This document shows positions 23,552 to 35,902 of a stretch of DNA of 64,000 bases, in pieces. The stretch comes from an uncultured Pseudomonadota bacterium (GTDB lineage Bacteria > Pseudomonadota > Alphaproteobacteria > RF32 > CAG-239), in assembly GCA_949292335.1 (NCBI GenBank), contig CASEYY010000021.1, positions 2,455 through 66,454 of the forward strand, in the 5' to 3' direction. The notes beneath the pieces were generated by a model. The model had not been told where the DNA came from and did no database searches. It saw only the letters and a program-made list of their open reading frames with translations. Position 1 is the first letter of the stretch; each line of letters begins with the position of its first letter. A program made the position numbers and the translations under genes.

Positions 23552-24514
23552 ATGACTAAAGTATCAGTGGTATTGCCGATTTATAATGTTGCAAAATATT
23601 TACCTAAATGTATGGATAGTCTGCTTAAACAAACATTACAAGATGTTGAGATTATTTGTGTAAACGATGAAAGTTCCGATAATTCGTTGCAAATATTAGA
23701 AGATTATGCGGCAAAAGACAACAGAATAAAAATAATCAATCAAAAAAATTCCGGCCCCGGTGTCGCCAGAAATAATGGTATTAAAGCGGCACAAGGAGAA
23801 TATATAGCTTTTTGTGATCCTGACGATTGGGTAGAGCTCAGTGCATATGAGACATTATATAATGCTGCCAAAGAAAACGGAGTTGATTTAGTTGAATATG
23901 CAATTACCGTACACGAAGAAAATAGTCGCAAAAAACAGCTAAAGAACAATCTATATAAACAAGAAATAACATACATAAATGACAATCCTAAAATAATCTT
24001 TCAAGGAGTTTCTGCTGCTTGGAACAAATTTTGCTCGGCAAAGTTGCTTAAAAAAAATAATATATTATTTTCGGAAGGCTATTGTTGTGAGGATTTAATT
24101 TTTTCGGTTTCGGTAAGAGCAAAAGCAAAGATGATATTATATATAGATAAACCTTTTTACAATTACTTACACCGCAAGAGCTCCATAACCCATAAAAAGT
24201 CGGCTGTTAACCTGTTGGTTCCGGATTTTATCAATGATACCTTGAAATTTTTACAAAAGGAAAATATATACCCATCAGTCAAGGAAGAATTTTGGAGTTG
24301 TGCACTTGGACTGGCGAGTCTTCACTATCGCAAATTACCTAAAGAAAATATTGATGAATACAAAGCAAAATGTCAATCCATCATGCCCGAAGATATATAT
24401 AAAAAGTTCGCCGATTATACCAAAGAAAAAACATTTTTAAGACAGTTGTTTTCTTTCGGGTACAACGGAAAAGTATATGAGCTAACAATTTTGGGAATAA
24501 GGATAAAATTTTAG
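23552..24514 (+). CDS. GT2 family glycosyltransferase
   Basis: VSVVLPIYNVAKYL...IICVNDESSD...CDPDD. Start placed at MTKVS (23552). The ORF opens at 23513, but that ATG sits 4 nt after a TATAAT-like hexamer. Confidence 0.8.
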   Translation: MTKVSVVLPIYNVAKYLPKCMDSLLKQTLQDVEIICVNDESSDNSLQILEDYAAKDNRIKIINQKNSGPGVARNNGIKAAQGEYIAFCDPDDWVELSAYETLYNAAKENGVDLVEYAITVHEENSRKKQLKNNLYKQEITYINDNPKIIFQGVSAAWNKFCSAKLLKKNNILFSEGYCCEDLIFSVSVRAKAKMILYIDKPFYNYLHRKSSITHKKSAVNLLVPDFINDTLKFLQKENIYPSVKEEFWSCALGLASLHYRKLPKENIDEYKAKCQSIMPEDIYKKFADYTKEKTFLRQLFSFGYNGKVYELTILGIRIKF

Positions 24515-24565
24515 TGTGGAAAACGATATGGAAAATAAAGCTTCCTAAAAGAATGATGTTCATAT

Positions 24566-25909
24566 ATGAAGCATATCAAATTAAAACAAATTTTTAACAA
24601 AAATGGAAATGTTGCCATGTTTACGATAAAGAAATATATATATAAACTTCTATATGTTTTACGATTAATAGACAAAGATACATATCAAGCTCAAAAAACT
24701 CTATATAACAAACATCTAAAAGATAAACAAAACAGCAAGTTTAGTATCGAAGATTATGTAACGGCAGAACTTAAACCGCAAAATAAAGAATGCTATGAAG
24801 GAGAGGCTTCTGATAACATTGAGTTACAATCCAAAGATCCGTTGCTTTTAGCATACTATTTAACTCAATTTCACCAGACATCTATAAATGATGAAAATTT
24901 TGGCAAAGGATTTACCGAATGGACCAATGTTGCTAAGGCAAAACCTCAATTCACCGGACACTATCAACCTCATATTCCCATGGATGTTGGGTTTTATGAT
25001 TTATCGCATGATGATGTGATGTACCGACAGGTTGAATTAGCAAAAAAATATGGAATAGGAGGTTTTTGTTTTTATTATTATTGGTTTTCTGGGCAAAGAG
25101 TATTGGAAAAACCGCTATTTAATTGGCTCAACAACAAAGAATTAAATTTTCCGTTTTGTTTATTCTGGGCCAACGAAAGCTGGGAGAGTAGATGGTTTGG
25201 CGGAGACAAAAAGACCATTATAGAAGATAATTTTGATATATCGCAAGTCGAGCAGTTTTTTTATGATATACTACCTTTCTTTCAAGATTCTCGCTATATC
25301 AAAGTAAGAGGTAAGCCTCTTTTCATCATATATCATCCCGATAAATTTACCTCAAGTGAGTTGAAGGCAATAATAAAAAAATTTCAAGAGCTGGCAATCA
25401 ATAACGGTCTTAAAGGTTTGCACATTTGTGGTCAAGGTTATAATTTATCAGATAATTTTGTCAAAGAATATGGTCTTGATGCCGTTGCGGAATTCTCACC
25501 ATGTGGTATGAAATTGCCGGAACTTAAAAATAAAAATTTTTGGATAAATCCCAACTATTCAGGAAAGCTCCTTGATTGTAAAGATTTTATAGAAAAAGAA
25601 ACTTGGAAATATAATACATCATATAGCCTGTATAAAGGAGTATTTTGCGGCTGGGATAATACCCCAAGAAATCAAAGCAATTCTCGAATATATTACAATA
25701 TGTCGCCACAAGTATATCAAAAATGGCTAAAAGATACCATTATATGGACTAGGGAACATAACTCATCCGATGAACAAATTATATTTATAAATGCATGGAA
25801 CGAATGGGGAGAGGGTGCACACCTAGAGCCTGATATTAAGTATGGGTACGCAAATCTTCAAGCCACAAGAAACGCAATAGAAGAAGCAAGGAAGTGTAAT
25901 GGAAAATAA
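24566..25909 (+). CDS. WbsX-family (GH99-like) polysaccharide biosynthesis protein
   Basis: GKGFTEWTNV...GFYDLSHDDVMYRQVELAKKYGIGGFCFYYYWF...NAWNEWGEGAHLEPD. Confidence 0.8.
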   Translation: MKHIKLKQIFNKNGNVAMFTIKKYIYKLLYVLRLIDKDTYQAQKTLYNKHLKDKQNSKFSIEDYVTAELKPQNKECYEGEASDNIELQSKDPLLLAYYLTQFHQTSINDENFGKGFTEWTNVAKAKPQFTGHYQPHIPMDVGFYDLSHDDVMYRQVELAKKYGIGGFCFYYYWFSGQRVLEKPLFNWLNNKELNFPFCLFWANESWESRWFGGDKKTIIEDNFDISQVEQFFYDILPFFQDSRYIKVRGKPLFIIYHPDKFTSSELKAIIKKFQELAINNGLKGLHICGQGYNLSDNFVKEYGLDAVAEFSPCGMKLPELKNKNFWINPNYSGKLLDCKDFIEKETWKYNTSYSLYKGVFCGWDNTPRNQSNSRIYYNMSPQVYQKWLKDTIIWTREHNSSDEQIIFINAWNEWGEGAHLEPDIKYGYANLQATRNAIEEARKCNGK

Positions 25910-33994: not shown

Positions 33995-34948
33995 TTACAT
34001 CTTAACCTTAAAAGTAAAACCCAAGATATTTATATATTTTCTTTTGCGGTCGGTAGAGGTTTCGATAGAGAAAATCCGTTTGATTAGTGGGAGTTTTTCT
34101 CTTCCTTTACCGGCGGCTTTAAGTCCGATTTCTTTTTGCAAAGCATCATAAGCCGGAACCATTGCGGCATATTGCCTAAATTCCGGAGTAAATTTGTTTT
34201 TACAAGCCGGATTATTAGGCTTCACACCGGTAAAATGGACAATCACCGGATTTTCTTCGGCTTTTAGGAATTCTTTTTGATATTTTTCATCATACTGTGA
34301 AACATTTTTCCGCCACCAAACATGCATATAGTCATATTTGGGTGATAGACGATATTTAAGTCCGTCACAAGCTTTGTTTAGGGCATCTTGATCATTACTG
34401 ATTTTGCTGTCTTTCATCACAATATCTTTAAGCTTGGCAAAAAAGTCGCATTTTCTCCAAGCCTTTAGGTTAATCAGCATAACGCCGGAATTAAAATAAA
34501 AGTTATCTTCCAAAGCGATGTTTTGGGCTTTTTGTTTTGAGAGTGAGGAGTCTTCAATAACTCCGGCCAGATTATCGCCTAAATCGAGCTCAAACAATGG
34601 ATGTAACGAAGCTCTGACGATTGTGTCACAATCCAGATACAGCACTCTTTCATCATCAGGCAATAAATCAGCCAACAAACAACGAAACCATGCCTCCATG
34701 GTAACCCAGTTAGGGCAGGGAAAACCATCAAAAATTTTGGTATCGACCTTAAGTGTTTTGAGCGAGTATGGCTTTATTGATTGCAAGTTGTCAAAGGTTT
34801 GCAGATATTTGTCTTCCAAATCGGCATACATAATAACAAACTCAATCTCGTCATTTTTGCGAGCATTATTAAGTACCGAGGCCATAGAAACCAAGGTAAG
34901 CGGAACAAAGTTTTTATCCGGAGCGTAGGCGATAGTAATTTTCGACAT
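33995..34948 (-). CDS. GT8 family glycosyltransferase
   Basis: ITIAYAPDKNF...VLYLDCDTIV...NSGVMLINL...DQDALN...HFTG. Confidence 0.85.
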   Translation of the reverse strand: MSKITIAYAPDKNFVPLTLVSMASVLNNARKNDEIEFVIMYADLEDKYLQTFDNLQSIKPYSLKTLKVDTKIFDGFPCPNWVTMEAWFRCLLADLLPDDERVLYLDCDTIVRASLHPLFELDLGDNLAGVIEDSSLSKQKAQNIALEDNFYFNSGVMLINLKAWRKCDFFAKLKDIVMKDSKISNDQDALNKACDGLKYRLSPKYDYMHVWWRKNVSQYDEKYQKEFLKAEENPVIVHFTGVKPNNPACKNKFTPEFRQYAAMVPAYDALQKEIGLKAAGKGREKLPLIKRIFSIETSTDRKRKYINILGFTFKVKM

Positions 34949-34951
34949 TTT

Positions 34952-35902
34952 TTAATCCTTTAATTTTTCCAATATTTGCGGATAAGCGGCAATAACCGCG
35001 GCCATTTGTTTGTTATTTCCATCCTGTTCAATGTTTAGCTTGGTAAGGGTGAGTTCTTCGGTTGTCCGCATTTCGCGTTCGGGGTTAACCAGGAGTACCT
35101 TACGCATACGTCCCCAAAAAGTTCTGATTTTAACATTATTTAGGACACTCATTGCCCAAAACCAGATATCATCGGCATAAGGTGCGAGCTCTTTGAATTT
35201 TTTTACATCGGCTACATCTCGATATAACGAATGCGGCGGATATAAGACCCCACCGCAACCGGTCAAAAAGTTTCTAAAAGACGGTTTGGTGAGGGTAGAG
35301 TTTTTCTTCCATTGTTTATAGGGTTTAGGATATCCGTTTTTATCCAAGGTTACTTGATGACAACGATGTCCGATAACGCAGTTTGGAGTTTTAAGGTGTT
35401 GCTTATAAAGTTTTTCCAGCCAATTTTCCGGATAGTATACATCATCATCCACAATGACGATAATATCATTGGGGAATTCTTGCAGTGCCGGGATTAATTT
35501 TTTGTACGAACGCAAATCATGGCACCATTTAATCGTCAGCCCGTTTTTTTGCAAATTAAGCACTGCCGGCGGCAAATCTTGCTCTTTATTGGGAAATTGC
35601 TCTTCTGCCAACCACAAGACCACTTCATCGGGCTTAAAACTTTGAGTCAGCAGCGAATAAAGGGTGTAATGAATCTCATAAATTCTTTCCGGAAAAGATG
35701 TCAACGATACAATAATTTTGGTCGGTCTTTTGTCGGCATTGATTCCGATGGCGTCAAAATTGATAATTTTTTGTAATACTTTATTTCTATCAATATGCGG
35801 CGGCATTTTCGGCTTTTTATTATAAGAAAAAGTGTGCCCCAAGATGGTAATTTCGCGTAAATTACCTTTTTTGCTGCGTTTATATAATATCATTAAAAAC
35901 AC
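34952..35902 (-). CDS. putative glycosyltransferase (GT-A-like)
   Basis: IIVSLTSFPERI...SLLTQSFKPDEVVLWL...IIVIVDDDVYYP. I have seen this pattern in capsule/LOS transferases. The family assignment is tentative. Confidence 0.6.
   Translation of the reverse strand: MFLMILYKRSKKGNLREITILGHTFSYNKKPKMPPHIDRNKVLQKIINFDAIGINADKRPTKIIVSLTSFPERIYEIHYTLYSLLTQSFKPDEVVLWLAEEQFPNKEQDLPPAVLNLQKNGLTIKWCHDLRSYKKLIPALQEFPNDIIVIVDDDVYYPENWLEKLYKQHLKTPNCVIGHRCHQVTLDKNGYPKPYKQWKKNSTLTKPSFRNFLTGCGGVLYPPHSLYRDVADVKKFKELAPYADDIWFWAMSVLNNVKIRTFWGRMRKVLLVNPEREMRTTEELTLTKLNIEQDGNNKQMAAVIAAYPQILEKLKD

Follow-up and report, generated by a model that had tools for sequence, protein, structure and literature searches.

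The 64-kb stretch of DNA analysed here (the window) contains a surface-glycan locus at 21073..35902 that, according to Pfam assignments, encodes Ugd, three GT2 glycosyltransferases, two WbsX proteins, an RgpF-like protein, a GT4, an FkbM-family methyltransferase, a TupA-like ATP-grasp amidoligase, an aminotransferase::HAD protein, a GT8 and a GT-A-like (weak GT2) glycosyltransferase. The locus is low in GC (31-34%, with 38% at the 34-36 kb edge) compared to its flanks (40-45%), and it is strain-variable: at this site a near-identical strain has another cassette, in which only two genes carry the peptide tag described below. Twelve proteins, every one except Ugd, were examined for transmembrane (TM) helices, and none was predicted. 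In every polymer-acting enzyme one terminus is strongly cationic, and the mean net charge of the best terminus was +6.8 for all 11 of these enzymes compared to +2.8 for background ORFs.

The original prediction held that five unrelated enzymes of this locus share a short basic terminal peptide and that a degenerate sixth copy is present. All six peptides were located where predicted, with exact translations, at the extreme ends of long ORFs, and the clear Pfam catalytic domains of these ORFs leave the peptides uncovered. Each terminus was scored with an HMM enriched over three rounds with foreign tags only, and was compared with 500 composition-matched shuffles. The N-terminal tag of the TupA-like amidoligase (MRLIKKERKPDGRRNIYILGKRIISYKTKKKTS, 29995..30093, + strand) scored 45.8 bits (0/500 shuffles as good) and lies ahead of the ATPgrasp_TupA domain, which begins at residue 77. 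The FkbM-family methyltransferase has an N-terminal tag (MKIIETKVTPQGHWKLYVCGLKICSFKIKKNK, 28953..29048, + strand; 26.6 bits, 0/500), as do its homologues L002:7936-9036 and L015:6259-7380. The C-terminal tag of the GT8 (LIKRIFSIETSTDRKRKYINILGFTFKVKM, 33998..34087, - strand; 15.0 bits, 0/500) follows a Pfam domain that stops at residue 244 of 317, and is also found in the near-identical strain L081. For the GT-A-like glycosyltransferase, the N-terminal tag itself stood (MILYKRSKKGNLREITILGHTFSYNKKPK, 35807..35893, - strand; 17.2 bits, 0/500), but orthologues begin with MILYKR, which probably places the true start at the ATG at 35893 and not at the GTG at 35902. This tag is visibly retained in nearly all 39 full-length orthologues (58-98% identity), a few of which have tags that score under the HMM cut-off. 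The weakest of the five supported copies is the C-terminal tag of a GT2 (LRQLFSFGYNGKVYELTILGIRIKF, 24437..24511, + strand; 8.1 bits, 2/500), a short form that stops directly after strand 3; outside the window this arrangement, a GT2 tagged at its C-terminus, is the one met most often among carriers.

The sixth copy, at the C-terminus of the RgpF-like protein (FIYSKKITKKNKMLIKIFKIPIYSK, 27652..27726, + strand), scored 1.9 bits and was equalled by 83 of the 500 shuffles, so by the shuffle test it is indistinguishable from chance. It does occupy the position in which bona fide tags come after the RgpF domain of the homologues P0267, P0177 and P0186, and its variant FFYQKKxTxSGKxIIKICKxPIYSK, with Gly replaced by Lys, is conserved in the closest orthologues (L014, L031 and L067). 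This copy is thus plausible as a tag but unproven. With the foreign-only HMM no match was found at the termini of the GT4, the other two GT2 or the two WbsX proteins, untagged polymer-acting enzymes that likewise have one cationic terminus; Ugd and the aminotransferase::HAD protein have no tag, and the HMM search of the window found no copy beyond those reported.

The first test of the tags was made non-circular by using an HMM built solely from the N-termini of foreign TupA-like homologues, which was run against the window's complete set of 416 stop-to-stop ORFs. The TupA-like N-terminus ranked first (1.4e-11), and the FkbM (i-E 1.5e-5), GT8 (0.016), GT-A-like (0.38) and GT2 (0.9) tags were also recovered. 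Five of the six top matches were window tags, and the single intruder was a 50-aa spurious ORF. The sharing of the tag by five unrelated window enzymes is thus a confirmed observation, and it is a repeat at the protein level because the DNA of the copies is dissimilar.

As a protein module the tag is small (about 30-36 residues) and autonomous, with the consensus phi-L-x-K-I-F-S-(V/I)-K-N-[3-8 residue turn]-(H/Y)-K-(V/I)-I-T-I-L-G-(I/L)-K-(I/F)-K-phi-K-K-K, and its N-terminal flavour reads MKIFxKxxxPNGRRxIYxxGxKIxSYKKK. For the TupA-like tag, AlphaFold2 predicted strands at residues 4-8, 13-18 and 21-27 with block-mean pLDDT of 86, 87 and 79 over residues 1-30, which bears out, as a prediction, the proposed three-stranded meander; the sheet would be antiparallel and followed by a Lys-rich tail. 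The model of a tandem array was of low confidence (pLDDT 58, pTM 0.57). The composition is strongly basic (K+R 25%, D+E 4.8%, 40% hydrophobic, net +7.2 per 35 aa), and several positions (F, S, N, K and G) are >94% conserved among the top 194 copies. The suggestion that this domain had not been described agrees with our database and literature search, in which the tag was covered neither by a model in Pfam or NCBIfam nor by a PDB sequence or any of the papers searched. Its presence on more than 12 unrelated folds makes it seem unlikely that the tag packs on its own catalytic domain.

Outside the window, 80 foreign loci contained 42 tags at i-E<0.01, while shuffled and reversed proteomes contained none. 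The predicted enrichment at protein termini was evident, since 31 of these 42 tags were terminal compared to 5.2 expected, and orthologue conservation also held, with the tag kept in 87/119 TupA-like and 53/120 GT-A-like homologues. Among 1.84 billion proteins, 1157 representatives matched the tag at E<=1e-3; the other tag-bearing bacteria are mostly uncultured gut bacteria. The expectation of one transferable module on unrelated folds at either end was correct and can be extended, as the tag also occurs at domain junctions (GT2-tag-TupA, GT8-tag-TupA, GT2-tag-GT8, GT2-tag-TOD1 and GT2-tag-RgpF) and in tandem arrays with a period of 33-41 aa. Two copies were present in 52 of the 139 top matches, and four tandem copies, the maximum, in one. 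The best 89 long carriers were glycan enzymes only: 58 GT2, 16 GT8, 8 RgpF, 3 DUF4422, 3 GT4 and 3 FkbM, plus GT32, TOD1, rSAM/SPASM, pyruvyl transferase, class I methyltransferase and GT-D types. TM helices were predicted in 0/90 and 1/49 carriers compared to 250/988 other locus proteins. Neighbouring nucleotide-sugar enzymes had no tag, and the untagged neighbours include seven epimerase/dehydratases, four hexapeptide acetyltransferases and a DegT aminotransferase.

Tags on non-homologous carriers were 47% identical within a locus compared to 32% between loci (permutation p<2e-4), and identity was only 33% between tags whose carriers were homologous but came from different loci. Melainabacteria alone gave 49% within and 39% between loci (p=0.001). 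Codon identity at identical residues was 0.60 within loci compared to 0.53 between, which means that the similarity did not come from recent gene conversion; it is at the protein level and not at the codon level. In the position of the tag, about 24 GT-A-like homologues have the sequence MxLGKLWLKTLRLFHLISE..YRRGK, which is cationic with a moderate helical hydrophobic moment, or short MFSFKNLFKKK stubs. Some untagged homologues (P0015-18 and Brachyspira P0097) have an acidic or neutral N-terminus, so the tag is dispensable for catalysis and perhaps, in some lineages, for localisation.

The original prediction proposed that the tag could serve in docking or membrane association and so bring the enzymes of the pathway together, and the sequences are consistent with this. 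In the reading we favour, whose chances seem to us evenly balanced, the tag is a cationic label for the localisation and assembly of soluble enzymes whose substrates are lipid-linked glycans. The module has been joined repeatedly to the catalytic domains of soluble, TM-less enzymes for the assembly or decoration of lipid-linked surface glycans, including glycosyltransferases of several folds, methyltransferases, the GlcA amidoligase and pyruvyl transferases. Its charge of about +7 and hydrophobic strand faces would keep the enzyme at the inner membrane, on the cytoplasmic face where growth of the undecaprenyl-linked acceptor takes place, and tandem copies would add avidity. Because many enzymes of a locus carry mutually similar copies, the tag may also bring these enzymes together, through tag-tag association or a common receptor. 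The analysis shows that the module exists and is modular, how far it is conserved and distributed, its composition, its predicted fold and its co-variation within loci; that it binds membranes, other tags or a receptor, and that it affects the efficiency of the pathway, is what we infer from these patterns. Tag charge, TM-less carriers, absence from nucleotide-sugar enzymes, the cationic amphipathic replacements and within-locus co-variation speak for such a label. On the other side, the GT4, two GT2 and two WbsX proteins of the window locus are untagged, the alternative cassette of the near-identical strain has no more than two tagged genes, some untagged homologues have acidic or neutral N-termini, a free-standing 37-aa tag ORF has no enzyme to localise, and non-specific membrane binding alone explains neither the F/S/N/K/G conservation nor the co-variation within loci.

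It is possible, though we consider it rather unlikely, that lipids are not a direct ligand and that the tag is a pure protein-protein docking module, analogous to a dockerin or sorting motif, that builds a locus-specific complex by tag-tag beta-sheet augmentation or sandwiching or through a dedicated receptor such as a flippase or exporter. Such a module would fit the concerted protein-level evolution of tags on unrelated enzymes of a locus, the >94% conservation of specific residues, the up to about nine tagged genes in one cluster (L002) and the adjacent tag pairs that could make an intramolecular six-stranded unit. The free-standing tag ORF, which has its own Shine-Dalgarno sequence, adjoins an ABC exporter, and ABC_membrane+ABC_tran exporters adjoin tagged genes in five loci (L084, L088, L098, L015 and L090). 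However, this exporter is missing from the window and from 23/24 tag-bearing TupA loci, and no scaffold or receptor gene consistently co-occurred with the tag across the tag-bearing loci compared. At net +7 per copy, tag-tag association would also be electrostatically costly without an anionic surface, and the cationic amphipathic replacements suggest membrane binding instead. That the tag is a cytoplasmic carbohydrate- or lipid-carrier-binding domain, which binds undecaprenyl-pyrophosphate or the anionic nascent glycan and raises the local acceptor concentration for all polymer-acting enzymes, appears improbable: the restriction to polymer-acting enzymes, a cationic tag alongside probably acidic glycans (Ugd in the window locus, pyruvyl transferases among the carriers) and tandem repeats typical of low-affinity glycan-binding repeats are all in its favour, but loci that differ widely in their enzymes, and hence in their glycans, have one conserved tag in common, and it resembles no CBM or repeat family known from Pfam or the PDB.

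The location of tags where genes end or domains meet in highly mosaic, strain-variable loci, and the many homologues that do without one, might instead indicate a passive element that targets nothing. It could be a linker or a cap that adds stability, or it could have arisen as a by-product when cassettes were shuffled in hypervariable glycan loci with conserved gene ends as recombination junctions. We regard this as very improbable, as the tag DNA is conserved neither in the window nor within loci beyond the level of codon bias, and the tag therefore cannot be a homologous-recombination site; specific residues are under strong purifying selection across phyla, and the predicted defined fold and tandem amplification suggest that the peptide itself has a function. 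It is scarcely credible that the termini resemble each other by chance because the locus is AT-rich and they are rich in Lys and Ile. The locus does have this composition and the RgpF and GT2 copies score weakly, but the shuffle, reversed-proteome and orthologue controls refute chance for five copies, four of which were matched by no shuffle, and the number of significant database matches also stands against it.

Among known systems, dockerins of cellulosomes are Ca-binding, helical, EF-hand-like extracellular repeats with identified cohesin partners. The tag resembles them as a small portable module on many unrelated enzymes of one pathway, sometimes duplicated and with species-specific variants, but it has no Pfam dockerin match and none of those features was seen in it. 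MORN and choline-binding (CW_binding_1) repeats are beta-hairpin modules of about 20-23 aa for membranes or wall polymers, and they share with the tag short hairpin units, Gly turns, aromatic or basic residues and tandem arrangement for avidity to a surface; the tag differs in its 33-41 aa repeat, its consensus and its cytoplasmic carriers, and has no Pfam match to them. LgtC and MurG have basic-hydrophobic surfaces comparable to membrane-association elements. Terminal membrane-association appendages are described for other peripheral glycan glycosyltransferases, namely the C-terminal appendage of TagA (PMC6493773) and WecG (PMC9804384). These too are short cationic-hydrophobic terminal elements, dispensable for the catalytic fold, on soluble enzymes that use undecaprenyl-linked acceptors at the cytoplasmic membrane face, and a cationic amphipathic segment fills the place of the tag in GT-A-like homologues. 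However, they are family-specific amphipathic alpha-helices, whereas the tag is predicted to be all-beta and is one conserved sequence family common to more than 12 families of enzymes, occurs at both kinds of terminus and also between domains, is amplified in tandem and co-varies within loci.

In eukaryotes, GOLPH3/Vps74 recognises Golgi glycosyltransferases by their cytoplasmic N-terminal tails (PMC13408441; bioRxiv 10.1101/2025.02.10.637573), so that a short basic-hydrophobic peptide on many glycosyltransferases acts as a common sorting or retention label for one adaptor. The parallel would be functional only, since that motif is an unstructured tail of a few residues beside a TM anchor with a known adaptor, and the tag is a predicted folded module of 30-36 residues on TM-less bacterial enzymes. 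Finally, residues 326-452 of Campylobacter jejuni Cj1438 form a region without assigned function between GT2 and TupA-like ATP-grasp domains (PMC11800379). The likeness is in the architectural slot: GT2-tag-TupA fusions place the tag and about 45 helical residues between their GT2 and ATP-grasp domains.

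The glycan locus of the window (21.0-35.9 kb) has a GC content of 31-34%, or 38% at its 34-36 kb edge, compared with 40-45% in the flanks. Its first gene, for UDP-glucose 6-dehydrogenase (Ugd; 21073-22371, + strand), was called by eye from the translation without a domain scan. The others were assigned by Pfam: GT2 (22387-23388, -), a second GT2 (23513-24514, +), WbsX (24566-25909, +), a further GT2 called GT2b (25899-26804, +), an RgpF-like protein (26884-27768, +), GT4 (27781-28953, +), an FkbM methyltransferase (28953-29981, +), a TupA-like ATP-grasp protein (29995-30984, +), a HisC-like aminotransferase fused to a HAD phosphatase (30986-32770, +), WbsX again (32810-33991, -), GT8 (33995-34948, -) and a GT-A-like protein with a weak GT2 match only (34952-35902, -). 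Leaving Ugd aside, none of the 12 proteins has a predicted TM helix, and this includes the GT2, GT8, GT-A-like, FkbM and TupA-like carriers of the Lys-rich terminal mini-domain of about 30-36 residues that is called the tag here. The copies are named by carrier and terminus: TupA_N, FkbM_N, GTA_N, GT8_C, GT2_C (on the GT2 encoded at 23513-24514) and the candidate RgpF_C. Two of the gene starts deserve comment. GT-A-like orthologues begin at MILYKR, which corresponds to the ATG at 35893 and not the GTG at 35902, and the GT2 at 23513 probably begins, in the manner of typical GT2 proteins, at an internal ATG (MTKVSVVLPIYNV; region 23513-23551). The two WbsX paralogues lie on opposite strands of the one locus, and no tag was found on any of the seven WbsX homologues of the fetched loci.

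The original prediction listed six copies of the motif. All six peptides are exact translations as written, and they lie at the extreme ends of their ORFs and outside Pfam domains. Used as a query, the TupA-like protein found 4726 homologues, and most of the best 119 have the module at their N-terminus. To avoid circularity, the profile was built from foreign organisms only. The first HMM, made from 67 foreign TupA-like N-termini and run on all 416 stop-to-stop ORFs of the window, placed TupA_N, FkbM_N, GT8_C, GTA_N and GT2_C among the six best. The HMM was then enriched with tags from 80 foreign loci, again with zero window sequences, and four copies are assigned to the tag family by this profile: TupA_N (45.8 bits), FkbM_N (26.6), GTA_N (17.2) and GT8_C (15.0), each with none of 500 composition-matched shuffles scoring as well. 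GT2_C is marginal (8.1 bits, with 2 of 500 shuffles of its own terminus as good). RgpF_C, however, did not pass (1.9 bits, 83 of 500 shuffles as good), and the termini of the window GT4, GT2a, GT2b and WbsX proteins scored at chance level with the same HMM. Among the 1037 proteins of the 80 foreign loci there were 42 tag copies at i-E<0.01, and none when the same proteins were shuffled or reversed. Of these copies 31 were terminal compared to 5.2 expected, and none of 200,000 simulations exceeded the 17 that was reached at most; 10 of the 11 internal copies were scanned, all 10 lying at or beside domain junctions. Shuffles, the termini of unrelated proteins and conservation in orthologues all favor the motif for five copies. 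Chance resemblance is excluded for these five, and the observation is confirmed for them, with the sixth plausible. The DNA of the six window copies is mutually dissimilar, so the repeat is a feature of the protein level. A DNA-level repeat or recombination site was considered and rejected on this ground, and also because codon identity within loci hardly exceeds that between loci.

RgpF_C is a plausible candidate for a divergent member of the family. In tagged RgpF homologues the tag follows the RgpF domain, at the exact position of the window peptide, and the nearest RgpF orthologues keep the same deviant FFYQKKxTxSGKxIIKICKxPIYSK in which Lys replaces Gly. The GT4 C-terminus was considered as a decayed seventh copy and rejected, since the window sequence could not be aligned with tags and its score is no better than chance, though the GT4 orthologue in another locus (L013) has a true tag where the window GT4 ends untagged. 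Two untagged C-termini end in cationic-aromatic/amphipathic tails: that of GT4 (27781-28953; KLPKWLGKILSFPIPIKKYRQEFRKKYFEGFK), with a net charge of +7 over the last 30 residues, and that of GT2b (25899-26804; KKRRKAIIRKLLKLIFKQA), with +11.

The tag is conserved in orthologues and attached to a wide range of enzymes elsewhere. An N-terminal tag at i-E<0.01 was found in 87 of 119 TupA-like and 53 of 120 GT-A-like homologues. In the GT-A-like family, the form MxLFKRxKxGNLREITLFGxKFxYTKKPK is visible in nearly all of 39 full-length orthologues (58-98% identity), a few of which fall below the HMM cut-off. An N-terminal flavor (MKIFxKxxxPNGRRHIYFxGIKIFSYKKK) and a general flavor (phi-L-x-K-IFS(V/I)KN-turn-(H/Y)K(V/I)ITILG(I/L)KIKxKKK) can be described. 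Carriers in foreign loci are GT2, GT8, GT4, GT32, DUF4422, TOD1/MUCI70-like, RgpF, FkbM, class I methyltransferase, DUF1796 and radical-SAM/SPASM proteins, and in bifunctional enzymes the tag sits at the junction (GT2-tag-TupA, GT8-tag-TupA, GT2-tag-GT8, GT2-tag-TOD1 and GT2-tag-RgpF). A word-indexed search with the tag profile yielded no more than 17 matches, all of them short ORFs or fragments, as its selection of candidates was biased toward short proteins; exhaustive HMMER was used instead, with short tag-only ORFs and the window GT8 copy as query against 1.84 billion representative proteins. At E<=1e-3 this returned 1157 proteins, of which 60 reached E<=1e-10. Among the best 150 of the 1157 were 139 newly returned proteins; 52 of these had two copies, either one behind each catalytic domain or both adjacent, and one, P0138, had four in tandem (residues 430-584, period 41 residues), preceded by a GT4 domain and followed by a HAD-like C-terminal part. 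Long carriers account for 89 of the 139, and all of these are glycan enzymes: GT2 (58), GT8 (16), RgpF (8), DUF4422 (3), GT4 (3) and FkbM (3), along with GT32, TOD1, radical SAM/SPASM, pyruvyl transferase, several methyltransferases, HAD and GT-D.

Judged by named members and source contigs, which include those of a metagenome scan with nine close tags, the carriers seem to belong to uncultured gut and rumen bacteria: Melainabacteria/Gastranaerophilales, Alphaproteobacteria, Elusimicrobia, Thermoguttaceae, Muribaculaceae, Desulfovibrio and Smithella. Some clusters are saturated with tags: L002 has about nine tagged genes, L015 six or seven and L092 five. A free-standing tag-only ORF of 37 aa (P0126; L084:8001-8114, also in L085 and L086) was seen in 10 or more contigs. 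An AGGAGG Shine-Dalgarno sequence precedes it by 9 nt, and it sits between a pyruvyl-transferase-tag-TPP fusion gene and a gene for a 605-aa ABC_membrane+ABC_tran exporter; P0127 is a 61-aa read-through variant of it. No match to the four-tag segment was found by tblastn in 72,556 plasmids, and an exact look-up of the window TupA-like protein found no record.

The original prediction also described a three-stranded meander, and this agrees with the AlphaFold2 model of the window TupA-like protein, whose copy was the only one modeled (33 homologues, mean pLDDT 90.8). The strands of TupA_N span residues 4-8, 13-18 and 21-27, with block-mean pLDDT of 86, 87 and 79 over residues 1-30, and are followed by helices and the ATP-grasp fold. 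Foldseek with the whole model returned ATP-grasp enzymes only, which confirms that fold and is uninformative on the tag. A single-sequence model of the four P0138 tags is almost all-beta, with an equal strand pattern in each repeat and one short helix (131-135), at low confidence (pLDDT 58, pTM 0.57), and Foldseek with this low-confidence model found no match in the PDB at E<0.7 and no meaningful neighbor. The impression that this is not a described domain also stood. Tags alone matched no Pfam-A (2025) family at E<=10, the Pfam domains of the carriers end short of the tag and leave the four-tag region of P0138 uncovered, NCBIfam 20.0 (2026) gave nothing for tags or tag regions, the tag profile had only a 10.7-bit chance match among PDB chain sequences, and full-text literature searches with motif strings and descriptions of a terminal motif found nothing relevant. 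The original prediction is thus partly supported, in that module, fold and novelty hold, and the docking or membrane-association role that it proposed is inferred. The tag is best seen as a mini-domain family not catalogued before, which would serve as a device of an already known type, a terminal localization or docking element of peripheral glycan enzymes.

Several observations bear on that role. A TM helix was predicted in 0 of 90 and 1 of 49 carriers, versus 250 of 988 other proteins in the same loci. The tag marks enzymes acting on the lipid-linked polymer as it grows. Untagged neighbors in tag-rich clusters include seven NAD-dependent epimerase/dehydratases, four hexapeptide acetyltransferases and one DegT aminotransferase, and the window has no tag on either Ugd or the aminotransferase::HAD fusion. 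In C. jejuni, ligases of the TupA-like family are known to amidate GlcA on the growing chain (PMC11800379). In composition the tag is 25% K+R, 4.8% D+E and 40% hydrophobic, with a net charge of about +7 per 35 residues, and strand 3 alternates as I-K-I-K-F-K. In its place, distant GT-A-like homologues have MxLGKLWLKTLRLFHLISE..YRRGK (net +5 to +7, with a moderate helical hydrophobic moment) and others have short MFSFKNLFKKK stubs. All polymer-acting enzymes of the window locus, tagged or not, have a mean best-terminus net charge of +6.8 versus +2.8 for background ORFs. These cationic replacements and cationic best termini favor association with the cytoplasmic membrane at its inner, anionic face, and the tag, with its +7 charge and TM-less carriers, would fit a mediator of membrane association for otherwise soluble enzymes.

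A different kind of evidence comes from comparing tags with each other. When the carriers are not homologous, their tags share 47% identity within a locus versus 32% between loci (permutation p<2e-4), and within Melainabacteria alone these two values are 49% and 39% (p=0.001). Homologous carriers of different loci have tags that are just 33% identical. Tags on unrelated enzymes of one locus (L002, L015, L092 and others) agree in loop length as well as sequence. Where residues are identical, codons agree at a rate of 0.60 within loci and 0.53 between, so this likeness does not come from recent gene conversion; it is concerted evolution at the protein level. Among the best copies F, S, N, K and G are more than 94% conserved, a figure inflated by best-match selection. 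The co-variation and the conserved residues together suggest a specific shared interaction surface, formed with other tags or a common receptor.

We give about an even chance to the tag being a portable cationic beta mini-domain for localization and assembly, which would hold polymer-acting enzymes that lack TM helices close to one another at the cytoplasmic face of the membrane. Computation shows that the module exists, how it is distributed, its modularity, composition and predicted fold, and the co-variation; all that is said of binding is inferred. The main rival is a docking code purely between proteins, with no direct lipid binding. A shared interaction surface is what such a code would employ, and the cationic substitutes found in the tag's place point to the membrane; this reading appears rather doubtful. 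Less likely than docking is that the tag binds the lipid-linked or anionic glycan itself, for which the positive charge and the polymer-acting carriers could speak; direct glycan binding is improbable. Less likely again, and very improbable, is a passive linker or cassette junction. Internal copies do lie at domain junctions; against this reading speak the dissimilar DNA of the copies, the strong conservation of particular residues, the predicted fold and the tandem amplification.

A more specific proposal is put forward tentatively, as possible rather than expected: a genome-specific docking code in which beta-sheet pairing at the membrane would let the tags of one locus recognize one another, or else a single dedicated receptor, giving a defined multi-enzyme glycan factory. 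Tags would then co-evolve, horizontally acquired enzymes would need the local tag dialect, and free-standing tag mini-proteins could cap or tune the assembly. An ABC_membrane+ABC_tran exporter adjoins tagged genes in five Melainabacteria-like loci, with none in the window or in the other TupA loci, and among the untagged neighbors of tag-bearing loci no scaffold candidate was seen and no receptor gene was evident.

The tag was compared with known devices. TagA/WecG-type anchors of peripheral glycosyltransferases are amphipathic alpha-helices, whereas the tag is predicted to form beta strands, so it does not fit the helix type. The beta-hairpin repeats of MORN and choline-binding (CW_binding_1) proteins have a period of about 20-23 residues, whereas tandem tags have a period of about 41 residues and no Pfam match to either. 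A dockerin-type module would have a cognate, cohesin-like partner; no conserved non-enzymatic gene of this kind was found in the tag-bearing loci, though the ABC exporter adjoins tagged genes in the five Melainabacteria-like loci. The nearest published remark found concerns C. jejuni Cj1438, in which residues 326-452, between the GT2 and TupA-like ATP-grasp domains, are a region with no annotated function (PMC11800379). This is the same slot that the tag occupies in GT2-tag-TupA fusions, a likeness by position alone.

In bacterial pathways for O-antigen, capsule and wall polysaccharide, the way in which soluble enzymes reach the membrane-bound, lipid-linked acceptor and one another is, to our knowledge, largely unknown, and has been studied enzyme by enzyme. 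One portable, recognizable module across a dozen enzyme families would give a direct handle on how these assembly lines are organized, would mark the genes of a locus that act on the polymer as opposed to precursors, and might be of use as a small tag in glycan-pathway engineering. With its more than 1000 representative clusters, it is also a domain family new to the catalogs, centered on little-known gut lineages (Melainabacteria, uncultured Alphaproteobacteria and Elusimicrobia). If the tag were merely a generic cationic membrane anchor it would still be a useful annotation, though a more ordinary one.

The locus itself differs between near-identical strains. The strain carrying P0296 (L081:10001-20942), a GT-A-like protein 98% identical to that of the window, retains Mfd, RecG, a 128-aa gene and the GT-A-like and GT8 end of the window locus. 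The cassette that follows is not that of the window (RmlA, dTDP-sugar isomerase, FdtA, hexapeptide acetyltransferase, GT2, GT10, GT2, GT8 and DegT), in which no tag was detected beyond the two shared genes, GT-A-like and GT8. The window locus is thus a variable region of serotype-like character, and tags move with particular cassettes. In the window, the interval between mfd and an OmpA-like gene (42074-44295) has a GC content of 0.35 and three ORFs (167, 220 and 300 aa) of no obvious function, and the matching interval of L081 also has unannotated ORFs. Lastly, Ugd (21073-22371), the TupA-like ATP-grasp protein (29995-30984) and the aminotransferase::HAD fusion (30986-32770) parallel the GlcA-amidating enzymes of C. 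jejuni HS:2, where Cj1435, Cj1437 and Cj1438 amidate GlcA with serinol or ethanolamine (PMC11800379). Because its domain content, and this alone, mirrors the HS:2 set, the window glycan probably contains amidated glucuronic acid.
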